Of a stretch of DNA of 64,000 bases, positions 6,434-55,373 are shown piece after piece. The stretch spans positions 2,400,001 through 2,464,000 of the forward strand of contig CAVUDW010000002.1 in the NCBI GenBank assembly GCA_963740355.1, written 5' to 3'. Source of the DNA: an uncultured Gemmatimonadaceae bacterium. Lineage in GTDB: Bacteria; Gemmatimonadota; Gemmatimonadetes; Gemmatimonadales; Gemmatimonadaceae. The position numbers were made by a program, and so were the translations under genes. Under the pieces are notes generated by a model that was not told where the DNA came from, ran no database searches, and was given only the letters and a program-made list of their open reading frames with translations. Numbering within the stretch: position 1 is the stretch's first letter; every line of letters starts with the position of its first letter.

Positions 6434-7030
6434 TTACCGAGTCGTGGCAGCGTGCGACCGCGCCAGTGACAGGAAGTTCTGGAGCAGCTGTTTGCCCCCC
6501 TCGGTGAGCACGGACTCGGGATGGAATTGCACGCCCCAGACGGGGTGCTCCCGGTGCCGCAAGGCGTGGATTTCCGTCGCCGAATCAGTCGCCCGAGCCG
6601 TCACTTCCAGCACCGACGGCAGCGACGCCGGCTCGACCACCAGCGAGTGGTATCGCATCACGCGCAGTGGTGACGGCAGGCCCGCGAAGAGCTCGGTGCC
6701 ATCGTGCACGAGGTCGGACGTCTTGCCGTGCATCACCCGGTCGGCGCGCACCACGCACCCACCGTACGCTTCGCCAATCGCCTGGTGCCCGAGGCAGACA
6801 CCAAGGATCGGAATCGTGGAGCCCCACTGCTGAATCACGGGCACCGTGATGCCGGCCTCGCCTGGCGTGCACGGGCCCGGCGACAGGACGATCGCCTCCG
6901 GGGCCATTGCCCCGACGGCGTCCACGGTCAACTCGTCGTTGCGATGCACGGCCAGTGTCTCGCCCATCTCGCCCAGGTACTGCACCAGGTTCCAGGTGAA
7001 CGAGTCGTAGTTGTCGAGGATCAGGATCAT
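6434..7030 (-). CDS. trpG: Anthranilate/aminodeoxychorismate synthase component II (glutamine amidotransferase)
   Basis: DNYDSFTWNLVQY, SPGP, GVCLGHQ, RYHSL, QFHPES. Confidence 0.93.
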   Translation of the reverse strand: MILILDNYDSFTWNLVQYLGEMGETLAVHRNDELTVDAVGAMAPEAIVLSPGPCTPGEAGITVPVIQQWGSTIPILGVCLGHQAIGEAYGGCVVRADRVMHGKTSDLVHDGTELFAGLPSPLRVMRYHSLVVEPASLPSVLEVTARATDSATEIHALRHREHPVWGVQFHPESVLTEGGKQLLQNFLSLARSHAATTR

Positions 7031-7941
7031 GCGCCGCGGGGATGGAACTGTCGGTGAATCTGCTGCAGGTAGCTGCGATCGACGTGGGTGTACAACTGCG
7101 TGGTCGCGATGTCGGCGTGGCCGAGCATGTCCTGCACGGCACGCAGGTCCGCGCCACCTTCCAACAGATGCGTGGCGAACGAGTGGCGCAAGGTGTGCGG
7201 CGTGACGTGTGTGGTGATTCCAGCGGCATCGACATACTTCCGCAACAGCTTCCAGGCGCCCATGCGTGACAACTGTCCGCCGCGCGCATTCACGAACAAC
7301 GTGGCGGTCGGTGCACCGTGCACCAGCGTCGGACGCAGTTCGCGGGTGTAAATCGCCACGGCAGCCAGCGCGCGTCGGCCAATCGGAACCAGCCGCTCCT
7401 TGTTCCCCTTCCCGACGACACGCACAATGCGCTCATCCATGTACACGTCGCCGATCCCAAGCGTGATCCACTCACTCACGCGCAGGCCTGCGCCGTACGC
7501 CACCTCGAACAAGGCGCGGTCGCGAAATGCGAGCCGCTCGTCGAGCGAGATCGCGCCGATGATGCGGTCGACTTCGTCCGGTGACAAGACGTCCGGCAGC
7601 GTCCGCCATTTCTTCGGCGTCTCGAGTTGCTCGCTGGGATCGTGCTTGATGTACGACTCACCGACCAGGAAGCGATAGAAACCACGCACCGCACTGACCA
7701 TCCGGCTGACCGACGCCGGCGCAAGGCCGAGGTCCACGAGGTGGTGGATGAAGCCGCGCAGCATTCGTGCATCGATGGCGGTGGGCGACGGGCTCCCGTG
7801 CAACGCGAGGTACTCGTGCAGGCGCAGCAGGTCGCGGCCGTACGCCTCGATGGTGCGTGGTGACGATCCCTGCTCGAGCGACATCGTGTCGAGCCACGCG
7901 TCGGCGTGCTCGAGGGGATGTGACGCGCCGATCGGCGTCAT
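7027..7941 (-). CDS. xerD: Site-specific tyrosine recombinase XerD
   Basis: N-terminal SAM-like domain, GLRVSE, GKGNKERLVP, TPHTLRHSFATHLLEGGADLR, LGHADIATTQLY, FHPRG C-terminus. Confidence 0.92.
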   Translation of the reverse strand: MTPIGASHPLEHADAWLDTMSLEQGSSPRTIEAYGRDLLRLHEYLALHGSPSPTAIDARMLRGFIHHLVDLGLAPASVSRMVSAVRGFYRFLVGESYIKHDPSEQLETPKKWRTLPDVLSPDEVDRIIGAISLDERLAFRDRALFEVAYGAGLRVSEWITLGIGDVYMDERIVRVVGKGNKERLVPIGRRALAAVAIYTRELRPTLVHGAPTATLFVNARGGQLSRMGAWKLLRKYVDAAGITTHVTPHTLRHSFATHLLEGGADLRAVQDMLGHADIATTQLYTHVDRSYLQQIHRQFHPRGA

Positions 7942-8540
7942 TCGCCTGTGGCGCGTCGCCGACGCCACCAGATGACGGCACCCACGACGACCACGATCGC
8001 GACGGCCACCAATCCCGAGACACGCGTCGCGGAACCAATCAGGCGTTGCAACTCATCGAGGTTCTGCCCGAAGCGAAAGCCGAGCCAGGCGATCGCACCG
8101 TACCAGATGGCCGATGCGATCGCCATCGCCGGCACGACTTGTCGCAAGGGAATCCTGAGCGCGCCTGCGAATGGCGGTACGATCGCGCGAACGCCAGGCA
8201 GGAAGCGACTCACGAACAATGCCCACCCGCCATACGACGAATACATCTTCGCGACGCGCGCTTCCGCATCGGCACCGCCGAAACGCTTCATCAGTGCGGC
8301 GCTACCGTATTTTCGGCCGACGAAATACATGCCGATCGCACCGCACAGGTTGCCAGCCCAGATCGAGGTGGCCGCCACGATCAACGAGCCCTGGCCGCGT
8401 GCCGCGAGAAAACTGCCCACACCGACCACGGTGTCCGCTGGGATGGGCGGAAAGATGTTTTCGGCTGCCGCGATCAGCGCCAGCGACGAATACAGCGCCC
8501 ACGTTGGGAGCGACGAAAGCCACTCCAGTACGGCATTCAC
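7938..8540 (-). CDS. DedA family membrane protein
   Basis: ENIFPPIPAD, YFVGRKYG, SRFLPGVR motifs; hydrophobic segments. Confidence 0.9.
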   Translation of the reverse strand: MNAVLEWLSSLPTWALYSSLALIAAAENIFPPIPADTVVGVGSFLAARGQGSLIVAATSIWAGNLCGAIGMYFVGRKYGSAALMKRFGGADAEARVAKMYSSYGGWALFVSRFLPGVRAIVPPFAGALRIPLRQVVPAMAIASAIWYGAIAWLGFRFGQNLDELQRLIGSATRVSGLVAVAIVVVVGAVIWWRRRRATGE

Positions 8541-8543
8541 TGG

Positions 8544-9545
8544 CTAGTTCGCAGTGCGGACCGGGATGAGCGTTGCGACGGCCATACATGCGAGTCCTTC
8601 GCCGCGGCCAACCCAGCCCATCCCCTCGTTGGTCTTGGCTTTCACGCTCACGCCATCCGTCGGCAAGCCAAGCGCATTCGCGAGCGCCCCGCGCATTGCA
8701 TCGCGATATGGCAGCAGCTTCGGCCGCTCGACGATCACCGTCACGTCGACCTGCGCCACACGCCAACCGCGCTTTTCCGCTGCCTGGCACGCGAGGCGCA
8801 GCATCTCGATCGAGCTGCGGCCCTTGTTCGCTGGATCCGTGTCGGGGAACAGTTCCCCTATGTCACCAGCCCCCGCGCCACCGAGGATCGCATCGGTGAG
8901 CGCATGACAGACCGCGTCGGCATCGGAATGTCCCACGAGCTTGATGTCGCCGGGAATCTCGATGCCGCCGAGAATCATCGGACCGCCGACCCCGAAGCGA
9001 TGCGAGTCGTAGCCGATGCCGGTACGGACCGGCAGCGATGGCGCAAAGGTCGGCGGGAAGGTGACATCGAGAATCTCGATGCCAGCCAGCGGGTCTGGCG
9101 CGCCCGGCTGACGCAGCACGCCGCGCGCTTCCGGGAACACGCCCCACAACAGCGGCGGCGTGACACCTGATGCGGCCAGCAACTTTCCCGCCCATGTGGT
9201 TTGGTCCTGCGCTGCGGCCATCAGGATGTCAGCATCCGAGATCTCGGATGCGCCGCACTGTTCAGAGATTCGCCCTGCCCGCTCCAGCACATGTTCCGGT
9301 GCGTCGTCGATCTCGGCCAGCAGTGCTCCAGTGCGTGCGAGATGAATGTCCCGGCGCGCATCCAGCTGCAGTGCGGCGGGGTTCACTCCCAGCAGGCGGA
9401 GCGCTGTTTGTGACCCCTCAGCGCCTGGCTCGAGAAGGCCGAGCAGCAGGTGCAGCGACGACAGCGTGGGATCGCCGATGCGCTCCATCTCGACCATTGC
9501 GAAGTCGATGGCCTTGCGAGCAGAAGCCTGAAACCGAACGGGCAT
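8544..9545 (-). CDS. ispF: Fusion: N-terminal tandem Clp repeat (ClpA/B/C N-domain-like) + 2-C-methyl-D-erythritol 2,4-cyclodiphosphate synthase
   Basis: C-terminal ~160 aa carries GIGYDSH, HSDADAVCHALTDA, DIGELFPDTD, KAKTNE. N-terminal ~135 aa resembles Clp_N repeats (RFQASARKAIDFA...HLLLGLL...ALRLLGVN; HVLERA...DILMAA...AGKLLAASGVT). Confidence 0.88.
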   Translation of the reverse strand: MPVRFQASARKAIDFAMVEMERIGDPTLSSLHLLLGLLEPGAEGSQTALRLLGVNPAALQLDARRDIHLARTGALLAEIDDAPEHVLERAGRISEQCGASEISDADILMAAAQDQTTWAGKLLAASGVTPPLLWGVFPEARGVLRQPGAPDPLAGIEILDVTFPPTFAPSLPVRTGIGYDSHRFGVGGPMILGGIEIPGDIKLVGHSDADAVCHALTDAILGGAGAGDIGELFPDTDPANKGRSSIEMLRLACQAAEKRGWRVAQVDVTVIVERPKLLPYRDAMRGALANALGLPTDGVSVKAKTNEGMGWVGRGEGLACMAVATLIPVRTAN

Positions 9546-9596
9546 GAGCGGGAGAGTCGGGGACGGGAGCGAGCAGCGAGCGCGAACAGCGAACGA

Positions 9597-10634
9597 TCAG
9601 GCGGCGACGGCTTCGGCTTCGATCGGGAGAATTGAATAGTCCTGCCGGCGACGGGCCGCCGTGAATCCCGCGTCGTGAATCAGGCGCTCGAGTTCCTTGG
9701 TGGTGGTGCGATAGGTCGTGTTCGCCGCCGACACCACGTTCTCCTCGATCATCAGCGAGCCGAAGTCGTTGCAGCCGTAGCGCAACGCCATCTGTCCAAC
9801 CTTCATGCCCATTGTGACCCAGCTGCTCTGCAGGTTCGGCACGTTGTCGAGCACGAGGCGGCTGATCGCAACCGTGCGCAGGTACTCCGTCGCGTCGGTC
9901 TTCTGGTAGTGCGAGAACTCCGGCGTATTCTCGGGCTGCAACGGCCAGGTGATGAAGGCGGTGAAGCCACCGGTGCGCGCCTGCAGTGCTCGCACGCGAT
10001 CGAGATGCTCGATGCGCTCCGCCAGCGTTTCGCCGAGTCCGTACATCATCGTCACCGACGTCTTCATCCCTTCCTGGTGCGCAATCTCCATCATCTCGAG
10101 CCAGCGATCGGCGCCGGCCTTCTTCGGTGCGGCGTAGTCGCGGACACGCTGCACCAGAATCTCGCCGCCGCCGCCCGGAATGGAATCGAGGCCGGCCGAC
10201 TTCAACTCGCGGATGACCTCGCGCGGGTCCATGCGGAACAGCGTCGCAAAGAAATCGACTTCGCTCGGGCTGAATCCGTGAATGTGGATCGGATGGTTGC
10301 GCTTGATGTAGCGCAGCAGGTCGAGATACCACTCGAACGGGATGTACGGATTGTGCCCGCCCTGGATCAGGATCTGCACGCCGCCAAGCGCCTTCGTTTC
10401 ATCGATCTTCTGCCCGATCTGCTCGAACGAGAGCGTGTAGCCCTCGTTGTGCTTGGGCCGCCGCGCGAACGCACAGAAGCCGCAATCCGCCACACAGACG
10501 TTCGTGTAGTTGATGTTGCGATCGACGATGTAGGTCACCACGCCTTCGGGGTGCAGTCGTTCGCGCACCTTGTCGGCTTCGAACCCAAGTTCGAGGAGCG
10601 GGGCGTTGGTGTAGAAGTCGAGAATATCGCGCAT
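9597..10634 (-). CDS. mqnC: Cyclic dehypoxanthine futalosine synthase (radical SAM)
   Basis: DRNINYTNVCVADCGFCAF, PGGGGEIL, QSSWVT, GCNDFGSLMIEENVV. Confidence 0.93.
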   Translation of the reverse strand: MRDILDFYTNAPLLELGFEADKVRERLHPEGVVTYIVDRNINYTNVCVADCGFCAFARRPKHNEGYTLSFEQIGQKIDETKALGGVQILIQGGHNPYIPFEWYLDLLRYIKRNHPIHIHGFSPSEVDFFATLFRMDPREVIRELKSAGLDSIPGGGGEILVQRVRDYAAPKKAGADRWLEMMEIAHQEGMKTSVTMMYGLGETLAERIEHLDRVRALQARTGGFTAFITWPLQPENTPEFSHYQKTDATEYLRTVAISRLVLDNVPNLQSSWVTMGMKVGQMALRYGCNDFGSLMIEENVVSAANTTYRTTTKELERLIHDAGFTAARRRQDYSILPIEAEAVAA

Positions 10635-10640
10635 GTGGCC

Positions 10641-11480
10641 TCAGGCCGCGGAAAGGAAGACGAGTGGACGTGCCTGCACCCGGCCCGCGGCATCGAGCCG
10701 GCGGTAGAACTCGGTCAGTCCCTGGAGGTGCGGCAACGACAGGCGGTAGTCGAGCCCACTGAAGTACAACGCACAGATGTCACGAGGCACGCCGGTGGTG
10801 GCGGCTGCCTGTTCCGCCAGGATCGGCAGGTTGGCCACGCCCCAGTCACGAGACGCGATCAGGCCGGCGTGCACACGAAGCGCCTCGGCCACAGGCGTGG
10901 AACGCTGGGCAACCCAGACGGCAAACACGAACGGCAACCCGGTCCACTCCTTCCACTCCTGCCCGAGGTCGACGTGGTGCGGATACACCTTGCTGACCGC
11001 GTTCGTGCCGGACGACAGCAGCAGCGCTGCATCGCCGATCACCAGGCGTGCATCATGTGGTTCGCTGCCAAAATGTGCGATATCGGCACTTTCGGCGTCG
11101 GCGGGCACGAGCCGAGGAGACACACCCCAGCGTTCACGGAACATCAGGGCCAGCAACTCGACGGATGTCATGCTGCTGCGTGACACGAGCACCGTGGCGC
11201 CATCGAGATCGGCCACCGGACGCTTGCTGAAAAGCATGACGCTGCGGACCGGACCATCGGAGGTTATCGCCAGATCAGGCAACAGCAAGTATCGCTCGGC
11301 ATGCAGCGCGTACTCGACGGCACTGACGACGCTGACGTCGAGCGTCCCAGCGGCCATCTCTGCATTCAATGCACTCGGCACACCATCCACCATCGCAGCA
11401 TCGATCGACACGATTCCACGGTCCACCGCGCCGTACACCGGGTAGGTGTTGATGTACCAGATCCGCCCGACGCGCAGCAT
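10641..11480 (-). CDS. mqnA: Chorismate dehydratase (futalosine pathway)
   Basis: RVGRIWYINTYP, GVPSALN, GPVRSV, SMTSV, IGDAAL, TGLPFVFAVW; start at MLRVG. Confidence 0.92.
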   Translation of the reverse strand: MLRVGRIWYINTYPVYGAVDRGIVSIDAAMVDGVPSALNAEMAAGTLDVSVVSAVEYALHAERYLLLPDLAITSDGPVRSVMLFSKRPVADLDGATVLVSRSSMTSVELLALMFRERWGVSPRLVPADAESADIAHFGSEPHDARLVIGDAALLLSSGTNAVSKVYPHHVDLGQEWKEWTGLPFVFAVWVAQRSTPVAEALRVHAGLIASRDWGVANLPILAEQAAATTGVPRDICALYFSGLDYRLSLPHLQGLTEFYRRLDAAGRVQARPLVFLSAA

Positions 11481-11481
11481 C

Positions 11482-12654
11482 TCAGGCCGCCGCGCCGACG
11501 GCTTCGGCGGGGGCATCCTCGAAGGTGCGGATGACCTCGTAGAACGAGTTGCGTTCTGCGGGCTGCTTGCCGGCGCCACGAATCAGTCGAAGCAATTCGT
11601 CCAGCGTCATGCCCTGCTTGGTCTGTGCACCGACGGCGTGGTAGATCTTCTCGCGCACCACGGTGCCTTCGATGTCGTTGACGCCGAACGCCAGCGAAAT
11701 CTGCGTCAATGACGGCGAGACCATGATCCAGTGCGACTTGATGTGCTCGAAGTTGTCGAGATACAGTCGGCCGACTGCGAGGTTGCGCAGGTCGTCGAAA
11801 CCGGTGGTGCTGGTCCCCTCGCGTCCCAGTTCCTTCCCGAGTTCGTTGTCATCCGGGTGGTACGCGAGCGGAATGAAGGCCAGGAATCCGCCAGTGTCAT
11901 CCTGCAGGTCGCGGAGCATCGTCAGGTGCTCGACGCGATCCTCGATGGTCTCGACATGCCCGTAGAGCATCGTGCAGTTGCTGCGAATTCCCAGCGCGTG
12001 CGCGGCGCGGTGCACGTTGATGTAGTCCGCACCACCGAGCTTCTTGTCGGCGATGAGGTCACGCACGGCGGCACTGAACGTCTCCGCGCCACCGCCCGGC
12101 AGCGTGTCGAGGCCGGCTTCACGCAAGGCGATCAGCACGTCGGTCCACGACATCTTCTCGATGCGCGCGATGTGCGCGATCTCGACCGCCGTCAACGCCT
12201 TGATGTGGACCTGCGGGTGCGCCGCCTTGAGGGCGCGAAACAAGGTGGTGTAGTACTCCAGCCCGGCCTGCATGTCGAGGCCACCCACGATGTGGAATTC
12301 GCGCGTCATGCTGTCGGCGGCCTGTGCTGCCTCCGCAAGTACCTGCTCGATCGAGTAGCGGTACGCGCCCTCTTCCTTCGGCAGGCGTGCGTAGCCGCAG
12401 AAGACACAGGTCTTCCGCAGCACGCAGATGTTGGTCGGGTTGATGTGCTGGTTCGACGCAAACGTCACGACGTCGCCATGCCGAGCACGATTCACGGCGT
12501 CCGCCAGGTGGCCCACGCCCAGCAAGTCCGGCGATCGGTAGAGCGTGATCGCATCGGCCGCCGTCAGCCGCTCGCCGCGGCGCACCTTCTCACCGATCGG
12601 GTGGAGCGCAGCATCGCGCAGGCGGTCGACATTGACGAGCGGTACGGCGGACAT
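11482..12654 (-). CDS. mqnE: Aminodeoxyfutalosine synthase (radical SAM)
   Basis: NQHINPTNIC...CVFC, EFHIVGG, HIKALTAVEI, PGGGAETF, DIEGTVVREKIYH; between fabF and mqnA. Confidence 0.9.
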   Translation of the reverse strand: MSAVPLVNVDRLRDAALHPIGEKVRRGERLTAADAITLYRSPDLLGVGHLADAVNRARHGDVVTFASNQHINPTNICVLRKTCVFCGYARLPKEEGAYRYSIEQVLAEAAQAADSMTREFHIVGGLDMQAGLEYYTTLFRALKAAHPQVHIKALTAVEIAHIARIEKMSWTDVLIALREAGLDTLPGGGAETFSAAVRDLIADKKLGGADYINVHRAAHALGIRSNCTMLYGHVETIEDRVEHLTMLRDLQDDTGGFLAFIPLAYHPDDNELGKELGREGTSTTGFDDLRNLAVGRLYLDNFEHIKSHWIMVSPSLTQISLAFGVNDIEGTVVREKIYHAVGAQTKQGMTLDELLRLIRGAGKQPAERNSFYEVIRTFEDAPAEAVGAAA

Positions 12655-54552: not shown

Positions 54553-55373
54553 TCGGGCAGCACCGACAGCGTTTCGGCGATCGCGAAATCACCGGCGTCC
54601 GTGACCTTCATGCCTCGTTCGCTGCCGCGCACGACGACGACCGGGAAGCCATAGTGCTCGCAGAGCGCGGCGTCGTCAGTGGCTGCCAGCTTGTCGCGAC
54701 GCGCACGCGTGTGCACTTCGTCGATCATCGCCCGCGGAAAGGCCTGCGGCGTCTGGGCGCGCCAGAGGTTCGTGCGATCGACTGTTCGCACGATCCGTCC
54801 GTCGGCGTCTACTTCCTTCAGCGTATCGACGACCGGGAGCGCGGCGATCGCGCCGTGGCCGTTACGCGCTTCACGAATGACGCGGTCGATCACGGTACCG
54901 CTCGCGAGCGGACGCGCCGCATCGTGAATGACGACCGTCTCGATGTTTTCGGGCATGTCCTCGAGCCCGTTGTACACCGACTGCATGCGATCGCGGCCGC
55001 CCTGGCTGACCAGCATGCGATCGATATCGCACTGGAAGATCCATGGCGGCGGATCGGCCGCGTAGTCGCGTGGGAGCACGACGACCACCAATGCCACGTC
55101 TGGACGCAACTGGAAGGTCTGCAGGCTGTGCAGCACCATCGGCTTCCCCGCGACCCAGCGAAATTGCTTCAGTTCCGTGCCGCCGACACGTGTACCGCTG
55201 CCGCCTGCGACGATCACGACCCCGACGTTTGGAGTCGCGGCCGCGGCGACCTCTCGCAGTTCGGCTGGACGCGCGTCCCGGTCGAGATTGGCTGCGGCTC
55301 GCGCGCCAACTTCGATGCCGTCGTGCATCTCCGTCGGGAGATCCTCGTATTTCGGTGCGTTCGGATCGGTCAT
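54549..55373 (-). CDS. ispD: 2-C-methyl-D-erythritol 4-phosphate cytidylyltransferase
   Basis: AGGSGTR, KQF, IHDAARP, AQTPQAF, TDDA, KVT. Confidence 0.95.
   Translation of the reverse strand: MTDPNAPKYEDLPTEMHDGIEVGARAAANLDRDARPAELREVAAAATPNVGVVIVAGGSGTRVGGTELKQFRWVAGKPMVLHSLQTFQLRPDVALVVVVLPRDYAADPPPWIFQCDIDRMLVSQGGRDRMQSVYNGLEDMPENIETVVIHDAARPLASGTVIDRVIREARNGHGAIAALPVVDTLKEVDADGRIVRTVDRTNLWRAQTPQAFPRAMIDEVHTRARRDKLAATDDAALCEHYGFPVVVVRGSERGMKVTDAGDFAIAETLSVLPE

Follow-up and report, generated by a model that had tools for sequence, protein, structure and literature searches.

A Clp-type N-domain is fused in frame to the isoprenoid enzyme IspF in some genera of the Gemmatimonadaceae

Introduction

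IspF, the 2-C-methyl-D-erythritol 2,4-cyclodiphosphate (MEcPP) synthase of the methylerythritol phosphate (MEP) pathway to isoprenoids, is both essential and a target for drugs, and to our knowledge it has been known so far only as a bare trimer or as a fusion to IspD. We describe a different arrangement in a 64,000-nucleotide stretch of DNA (the window) from an uncultured Gemmatimonadaceae bacterium (GenBank assembly GCA_963740355.1, contig CAVUDW010000002.1, positions 2,400,001 to 2,464,000 of the forward strand). Here, a gene at 8544..9545 on the minus strand of the window encodes an N-domain of the Clp/Hsp100 type, a Pro-rich linker, and IspF in a single protein of 333 residues and 36 kDa.

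Monofunctional IspF proteins (Escherichia coli 1gx1 and Pseudomonas aeruginosa 5b8f) share their sequence, fold, and DSH and HSD motifs with the C-terminal 160 residues of this fusion and lack its 172-residue N-terminal extension, which comprises the Clp N-domain and the linker. The bifunctional IspD–IspF enzymes (Campylobacter jejuni 1w55 and Helicobacter pylori 8xkf) likewise carry IspF as the C-terminal domain of a two-domain protein and are a precedent for an IspF trimer that displays three extra N-terminal modules. They differ in that the N-terminal module of the fusion described here is not IspD; model NF006899 reached 210 bits against a cut-off of 417 and matched over model positions 221–380 only.

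The N-domains of ClpC, ClpB, and ClpA (5hbn, 2y1q, 3fes, 1khy, and 1k6k) have the fold predicted for the N-terminal part of the fusion, which keeps their R-F N terminus and the HLLLGL signature of repeat 1. Unlike the Hsp100 ATPases, the fusion carries its N-domain without a module of the AAA+ type (ATPases associated with diverse cellular activities), its repeat 2 has lost the GTEH-LLLGL signature, and the residues at ClpC positions T7, E32, and E106 are replaced. The domain has also been reused as a binding module outside the Hsp100 ATPases, in mycobacterial ClpC2 (8ad9 and 9p2p), in plant ClpT (4y0b, a "double Clp-N motif protein"), and in multi-repeat Clp_N proteins. Plant ClpT is reported to bind the core of the Clp protease (PMC4243950). 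All of these proteins either stand alone or consist of repeats only and are linked to the Clp system, whereas the N-domain described here is joined to a metabolic enzyme and was never stand-alone in the 50 loci in which it was located.

Results

One open reading frame encodes the N-domain and IspF

The fusion gene begins with ATG and runs uninterrupted for 333 codons to a stop codon at 8544–8546. An earlier reading of the letters alone (the original prediction) had described it as a Clp N-domain of two repeats that is joined in frame, through a Pro-rich linker, to a complete IspF, all encoded by an uninterrupted 333-residue frame with no ATG or GTG right before the IspF part, and the reading frame, domain matches, and predicted folds all bear this description out. 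Database protein searches returned relatives that align over the full length of the protein, with 45–95% identity and 94–100% coverage. Among same-family genomes, the N-domain and IspF share one open frame in all 20 of the loci that bear the N-domain, and every one of these 20 proteins starts with M-x-V/M-R/S-F. After addition of 30 named loci from metagenome-assembled genomes (MAGs) and of locus L003, the tally of N-domain-bearing loci fused in frame stood at 50 of 50. Because all 50 keep the N-domain in frame with IspF, the fusion is, on this comparison, one genuine protein and not an assembly artefact.

For the window gene, in-frame ATG, GTG, and TTG codons are absent between residue 143 (GTG) and residue 190 (ATG). 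Residue 190 lies beyond the catalytic D180 and H182, so a separate IspF cannot initiate there. Contigs assembled from public sequencing runs contained no insertions or deletions over the covered parts of 8664–9103 and 9192–9499; these contigs are short fragments and leave 9104–9191 uncovered. Two RNA runs yielded no contig for the region.

In four of the nine fused relatives examined (L020, L022, L025, and L061), the Val codon three codons before the G of GIGYDSHRF is GTG. This is the position at which unfused relatives begin IspF, and the window gene has no start codon there. The GTG codons could be a relic of an ancestral start, or an internal initiation site that yields a short isoform.

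The N-terminal 141 residues match Clp/Hsp100 N-domains

Residues 1–141 (9123..9545, minus strand) were examined by Pfam, by profile search, by AlphaFold2 (AF2), and by Foldseek. Pfam Clp_N (PF02861) matched residues 24–60 with 22.2 bits against a gathering cut-off of 20.7, a marginal match confined to repeat 1. A profile of 11 N-domains (A2) matched solved N-domains much more strongly, with E values of 1.3e-21 for ClpC (5hbn, 80.6 bits), 6e-9 for ClpA (39.5 bits), and 6e-8 for ClpB (36.2 bits); alignment over the full length was obtained only with ClpB, ClpA, and one ClpC entry (3fes). When a second profile, built from 118 sequences, was run against N termini of the bacterium's own genome, ClpC (E = 1.6e-22), ClpB (3.1e-19), and a ClpV-like ATPase (1.5e-13) were found. 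A six-frame scan of the genome located the N-domain only in the fusion gene and in these three ATPases and gave no further paralogue. The third of them, a Clp_N ATPase of about 891 residues encoded outside the window (L038; G000:C2:1571526-1574264), resembles ClpV/TssH of type VI secretion through a weak N-domain match (ClpV1 entry 4uqw).

The AF2 model of the N-domain alone had a predicted local distance difference test score (pLDDT) of 93 and a predicted template modelling score (pTM) of 0.89, with eight helices within residues 7–141. Four of these fall in repeat 1 (residues 7–23, 30–37, 43–51, and 56–72) and four in repeat 2 (82–96, 104–113, 118–125, and 130–136). Every match listed by Foldseek was an Hsp100-type N-domain (ClpC, ClpB, ClpA, ClpC2, ClpD, Hsp104, and a secretion-system protein of a malaria parasite). 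The template modelling (TM) scores, normalised to the query, ranged from 0.61 to 0.81 over 133–155 columns. No AAA+ match was obtained for the fusion protein with Pfam or NCBIfam, the ClpB model TIGR03346 scoring 13.7 bits against a cut-off of 1232. Repeat 1 retains the HLLLGL signature and repeat 2 has diverged (SDxDIL). About 20 N-domain positions, for example F5, A9, R10, E21, H32–L34, G36, and D106, are invariant among fused clades of 37–44% identity. By predicted fold and profile match, residues 1–141 are a complete Clp/Hsp100-type N-domain, in which two tandem four-helix repeats make up one pseudo-symmetric domain of about 140 residues, in line with the two helical repeats first proposed.

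A linker predicted to be disordered separates the two domains

In the full-length AF2 model, built from 87 homologues (alignment A1), mean pLDDT was 89.8 and each domain exceeded 90; the pTM was 0.55, and the monomer model contained no confident interdomain packing. Residues 142–172 (9030..9122, minus strand) form the Pro-rich linker, which is predicted to be disordered from pLDDT and sequence comparison. Block-mean pLDDT fell from 70 to 52 and 49 over residues 141–170 and was below 50 at residues 159–166. In fused clades, the segment that joins the domains, measured between N-domain position 131 and the edge of the IspF motif, ranges in length from 24 to 72 residues. Its mean identity between the window's genus and the other fused clades is 16%, and the linkers cannot be aligned from clade to clade. 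Within the window's genus, the linker is almost invariant, with ...GIEILDVTFPPTF... among its conserved parts, and it might contain a short binding motif particular to this genus.

The C-terminal domain is a complete IspF and the only one in the genome

The IspF domain was assigned to residues 173–333 (8547..9029, minus strand) from Pfam, NCBIfam, and fold comparison, and this boundary agrees with the span of about 8544–9029 originally predicted for a complete domain. YgbB (PF02542) matched residues 174–326 at E = 1.4e-59 (201.4 bits against a cut-off of 26.7), and the NCBIfam ispF model TIGR00151 gave 188.5 bits against a cut-off of 116.45. In the AF2 model, pLDDT was above 90 across most of residues 174–328. 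Superposition of this part on solved monofunctional IspF structures gave target-normalised TM scores of 0.92–0.96 and root mean square deviations of 1.1–1.9 Å, at 39–53% identity. The DSH (D180, S181, and H182) and HSD (H206, S207, and D208) motifs, which the original prediction had read as retained, were invariant in 87 aligned fused proteins; D180, H182, and H206 belong to the metal-binding motifs, the metal-binding Asp/His/His of E. coli IspF being D8, H10, and H42.

The fusion is the only YgbB match in the genome. The genome also contains ispG and, as had been predicted, a separate ispD that is not part of the fusion (54570..55223, minus strand; G000:C2:2454570-2455223; PF01128 IspD, E = 2.5e-57). 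HMG-CoA (3-hydroxy-3-methylglutaryl coenzyme A) reductase was not found in this assembly, which is 94.5% complete. Because YgbB occurs once, ispD and ispG are present, HMG-CoA reductase was not found, and the DSH and HSD motifs are invariant, the fusion protein would be the sole, housekeeping MEcPP synthase of an MEP-dependent organism and presumably converts CDP-ME 2-phosphate to MEcPP and CMP. Its IspF core is expected, by homology, to form the usual homotrimer, with active sites between subunits. A search for IspF positions specific to fused genes gave none; the column that separated them best, E231, has the same residue in the majority (53%) of 30 unfused relatives.

The phospho-arginine pockets of ClpC are replaced in the fusion

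ClpC N-domains read phospho-arginine through two pockets that involve T7, E32, and E106 (PMC12583610). In profile and pairwise alignments, these positions correspond to Q6, L31, and A105 of the fusion N-domain, and they vary within the family of fused proteins. Because the pocket residues are replaced and variable, reading of phospho-arginine by this N-domain appears unlikely, and the original prediction that the pocket had not been retained holds.

The ClpC of the same genome keeps FTER...GTEH in both repeats. Directly upstream of clpC, outside the window, lies a gene for an arginine kinase domain of the McsB type (PF00217, E = 9.6e-57; L070; G000:C2:2325337-2328778). McsB occurs in 269 of the 301 genomes sampled from the family, in those with the fusion and those without it alike, and showed no association with the fusion; of 14 well-known control genomes, Bacillus subtilis alone matched. 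A phospho-arginine–ClpC system seems to be standard in the Gemmatimonadaceae.

The fusion was located only in Gemmatimonadaceae-labelled genomes

Both Pfam domains were present in 118 of the best 120 database relatives, the two exceptions being short (225 and 272 residues), and the organism names among these 120 were all Gemmatimonadaceae or Gemmatimonadetes. A scan of one genome per prokaryote species with a single peptide pattern, which is not exhaustive, gave 30 confirmed loci, all in MAGs titled as Gemmatimonadota lineages. In a sample of 401 genomes from across the phylum, matches to the N-domain profile at E ≤1e-22 came from 9, all of the window's family (the window's own genome and 8 of 93 others), and none came from the 307 genomes of the other eleven families.

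Within the family sample, about 22 of 301 genomes (species) gave a strong match (E ≤5e-13, in open frames of 324–592 residues), spread over eight genus codes. These were all nine genomes of the window's genus (the window's own included), six of eight in g15, both in g110, and one each in g116, g120, g123, g130, and g145. Weaker matches in the family (E of 5.5e-10 or worse) were mostly the N termini of frames of 696–1078 residues, that is, Clp ATPases. One fused locus (L029, from genome G222) and one unfused locus (L009, from G157) come from genomes flagged as unpublished, and the family-wide and McsB tallies include flagged genomes. All loci retrieved came from MAGs, and no cultured strain with the fusion was encountered.

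The ESM Atlas contains two clusters with the fusion architecture, of 130 and 227 members, one of them automatically named [quoted passage not shown]. No confirmation was obtained for the label "commonest Acidobacteriota" attached to the 227-member cluster; for 10 such proteins, Gemmatimonadaceae was the sole organism name that turned up. The fusion was seen in no genomes other than those labelled Gemmatimonadaceae, in some genera of this one soil and freshwater family, and no scan aimed at Acidobacteriota genomes was made.

A search with the N-domain profile returned 24,727 matches at E ≤0.001, swamped by multi-repeat Clp_N proteins, and among the best 150 of these no donor and no fusion of the N-domain to another enzyme was seen. 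The top matches (P0121–P0269) are dominated by proteins with many Clp_N-like stretches, up to 15 in 1762 residues, and not by Clp ATPases.

Source databases label the fusion proteins simply as IspF, with both Pfam domains precomputed on them, and full-text literature searches found no paper on a Clp_N–IspF fusion. The parts belong to known families, and the combination is catalogued in databases and, as far as the searches reach, uncharacterised in print. The suggestion that the architecture is undescribed therefore stands as regards the literature; it does not stand in the sense of rare or unseen, given the 118 of 120 relatives and the two Atlas clusters.

The fused state is patchy within the family

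Most same-family relatives have no N-domain, and the fusion is evolutionarily dispensable. All 40 unfused loci lacked an N-domain within about 1.5 kb. In the unfused relatives, IspF begins a few residues before GIGYDSHRF, and the frame upstream reads as Arg-rich nonsense. Decayed relics of the N-domain were sought in three unfused loci with gaps of 440–545 bp, and none was found at E values up to 10.

A maximum likelihood tree was computed with a quick method from MqnC, encoded by the adjacent gene, and the IspF domain of the same locus. It used 72 of 91 loci (61 distinct rows), 19 having been dropped for incomplete coverage. Fused genes were spread over three or more clades, with unfused genes between them, and the fused state requires at least three changes on this locus tree; a single fused clade was rejected (approximately unbiased (AU) test, p = 0.0005; difference in log likelihood, 92.7). 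The N-domains of the different fused clades have their start, their locus, and about 20 invariant positions in common. Identity between fused clades was 37% for the N-domain, 65% for the adjacent IspF, and 78–86% for MqnC. That the N-domains are more diverged than IspF and MqnC argues against recent lateral spread. These patterns point to one old insertion of the N-domain between mqnC and ispF early in the family, probably followed by several later losses, and recent spread or independent fusions would be disfavoured as the history of the fused state.

Selection was estimated within the window's genus as the ratio of nonsynonymous to synonymous substitution rates (dN/dS) from 17 distinct genes, for which 133–134 of 136 pairs were usable; the gene finder had failed on 13 of the 49 loci, and 9 sequences were discarded as duplicates or as short. 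The mean ratios, which are approximate, came to 0.055 (N-domain), 0.081 (linker), and 0.054 (IspF). Within this genus, the N-domain is constrained as strictly as the catalytic domain. Ratios between distant fused clades were not used, as dS is saturated there and the values are unreliable.

The three unfused loci with gaps of 440–545 bp (L005:1966-2407, L009:1045-1527, and L080:1057-1600) have a gene between mqnC and ispF whose product, judged by eye, resembles PurE (N5-carboxyaminoimidazole ribonucleotide mutase), and this insert occupies the same spot as the N-domain in fused genomes. In a public run from a wood decay metagenome (coded X2), a 151-nt contig of depth 2 and 85% likeness joins window position 9021 to 9637. 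In it, 62 other letters separate the start of IspF from the end of mqnC, as in unfused relatives, so that the sample probably contains one of these.

The fusion gene lies next to menaquinone genes in a co-directional cluster

Upstream of the fusion gene, with 51 bp between its stop codon and the fusion ATG, is a gene for an MqnC-type radical SAM (S-adenosylmethionine) enzyme of the futalosine menaquinone pathway (9597..10634, minus strand; Radical_SAM and CofH/MqnC C-terminal region). It is preceded by a co-directional mqnA-like menaquinone biosynthesis gene (10641..11579, minus strand; PF02621 VitK2_biosynth, E = 2.1e-66). Downstream, a DedA/VTT-domain membrane protein (7938..8540, minus strand; PF09335 VTT_dom) starts 3 nt past the fusion stop codon. 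The minus-strand cluster reads fabF, an mqnE-like radical SAM gene, mqnA, mqnC, the fusion, dedA, a xerD-like gene (tyrosine recombinase), a trpG/pabA-like gene (class I glutamine amidotransferase), and a kdsB-like cytidylyltransferase gene; for the mqnE-like gene, Pfam assigns only the CofH/MqnC family. The order mqnA-mqnC-ispF-dedA-xerD is common to most relatives examined, fused and unfused. By the predicted starts of the longest open reading frames, xerD-like overlaps dedA by 31 nt and trpG/pabA-like overlaps xerD-like by 4 nt, and the tight spacing across 6434–8546 (minus strand) suggests translational coupling.

Discussion

The reading that we favour, with about even confidence, is that the N-domain acts as a docking module on a tether, to which a partner protein or a peptide exposed elsewhere would bind. 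A canonical IspF trimer would carry three N-domains, one per subunit, each folding independently at the end of a flexible tether. These arms would hold the partner protein or exposed peptide segment near IspF, by way of the helical surface that such domains employ in Clp ATPases. The N-domain presumably takes no part in catalysis, because most relatives lack it and IspF shows no changes specific to fused genes. If it is a docking arm, its partner might be another enzyme of the isoprenoid or menaquinone pathway, in a scaffold comparable to the IspD–IspF fusions, which we put forward tentatively; a component of the ClpC system is a slightly more doubtful candidate, and what remains would fall to something not yet guessable.

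Several observations weigh against the docking module. No textbook ligand of a Clp N-domain is obvious, as the phospho-arginine pockets are lost and searches of the genome, which is 94.5% complete, gave neither ClpS nor MecA, the known adaptors of such domains. Pfam detects repeat 1 alone, barely over threshold. Within-genus dS is about 1.1–1.2, near saturation, so that the ratios taken as a sign of constraint are approximate. The history was read from a quickly computed tree of two genes at one locus and not from a species tree. Repeated loss implies that the N-domain is not needed for IspF function as such, and it would fit a weakly useful appendage too.

An unlikely alternative is coupling to Clp proteolysis, in which the N-domain mimics that of ClpC and contacts ClpC (for example, its M-domain or AAA1 ring), McsB, or ClpP, so that IspF turnover or ClpC activity responds to isoprenoid or MEcPP status. 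The profile does score best on ClpC-type N-domains (80.6 bits for 5hbn, and E = 1.6e-22 for the ClpC of the same genome), but the higher ClpC score arises from repeat 1 matching both ClpC repeats, and the full-length alignments are those to ClpB, ClpA, and 3fes. The genome has the McsB–ClpC pair, with McsB encoded directly upstream of clpC; McsB is nevertheless found in family genomes regardless of the fusion, so the Clp system does not track it, and the loss of the pocket residues and the failure to find ClpS and MecA also speak against such coupling. Two published observations lend it some plausibility: the resting ClpC N-domain contacts M-domains and AAA1 (PMC12583610), and plant MEP-pathway enzymes are Clp clients (PMC4729485, for a different enzyme, DXS). 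In its most specific form, which we consider decidedly improbable, the three N-domains would connect the MEcPP-making enzyme to McsB–ClpC–ClpP, for instance by docking on ClpC M-domains as the resting N-domains of ClpC itself do. If that were true, isoprenoid or oxidative-stress status and regulated proteolysis would control one another, in a bacterial counterpart of Clp control over MEP-pathway enzymes in plastids. The original prediction had proposed that the fusion links the MEP pathway or MEcPP to proteostasis. That proposal drew on the name of the domain and is not upheld: McsB is untied to the fusion, ClpS and MecA were not found, IspF has no fused-specific position, and no evidence for a link to proteolysis was found in this analysis.

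The N-domain might also be an appendage that is nearly neutral or at best stabilising. In that case, a second copy of a Clp N-domain landed upstream of ispF, became fixed, and at most aids folding or solubility, persisting since its removal requires a precise deletion together with a new start codon. The patchy distribution, with at least three state changes on the locus tree, the absence of the N-domain from most of the family, and the lack of co-adaptation in IspF are all compatible with this. A neutral domain should decay, however, and here a full eight-helix fold is predicted, some 20 positions are invariant between clades of 37–44% identity, the dN/dS of the N-domain within the genus is as low as that of the catalytic domain, and no decayed relics were seen in the 40 unfused loci. 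On balance, we regard the appendage as improbable.

IspF activity responds to ligands such as MEP and farnesyl diphosphate, and the N-domain or linker could fold back on the IspF trimer to gate its active site, central hydrophobic cavity, or oligomeric state. The predicted-disordered linker is conserved within the genus (dN/dS 0.081), as a binding segment would be, but neither its length nor its sequence is conserved between fused clades. AF2 gave no confident interdomain packing (pTM 0.55), and, in a comparison over three groups of fused clades, no IspF residue set fused genes apart. Such intramolecular regulation is in our view a rather remote prospect.

Stand-alone ClpC2 proteins of actinobacteria protect against cyclic peptides that attack ClpC, and a comparable decoy, which soaks up natural products targeting N-domains, was considered for the fusion. 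The profile matches stand-alone ClpC N-domain homologues (ClpC2 9p2p and 8ad9), and the organisms inhabit soils and sediments, judging by record titles and run descriptions. A decoy gives no reason for fusion to IspF, and the N-terminal and repeat-2 positions contacted by cyclic peptides in ClpC1, whose identities were taken in part from PDB titles, are not conserved in a pairwise alignment to the genome's own ClpC; this role is very unlikely. That two genes were wrongly joined by a frameshift, a misassembly, or a read-through frame is a negligible prospect: long spurious frames do arise in high-GC genomes, and junk frames lie upstream of ispF in unfused relatives, but the frame is intact in 50 of 50 loci of independent assemblies, the N terminus is conserved from the first residue, purifying selection and a confident predicted fold apply, and no internal start lies near the IspF domain.

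A Clp N-domain, otherwise tied to recognition of substrates and adaptors by AAA+ unfoldases, has thus been grafted onto IspF and appears to have been kept under strong selection in several genera of a family that is widespread and has been little studied. If the N-domain is dispensable, the locus would offer a clean natural case in which an accessory domain was gained and then lost repeatedly at one fixed position. If, as the docking module would have it, the N-domain recruits a partner, the fusion would either represent a new organisation of the MEP pathway or tie isoprenoid metabolism directly to the quality control of proteins, and the known uses of the Clp N-domain would be widened.

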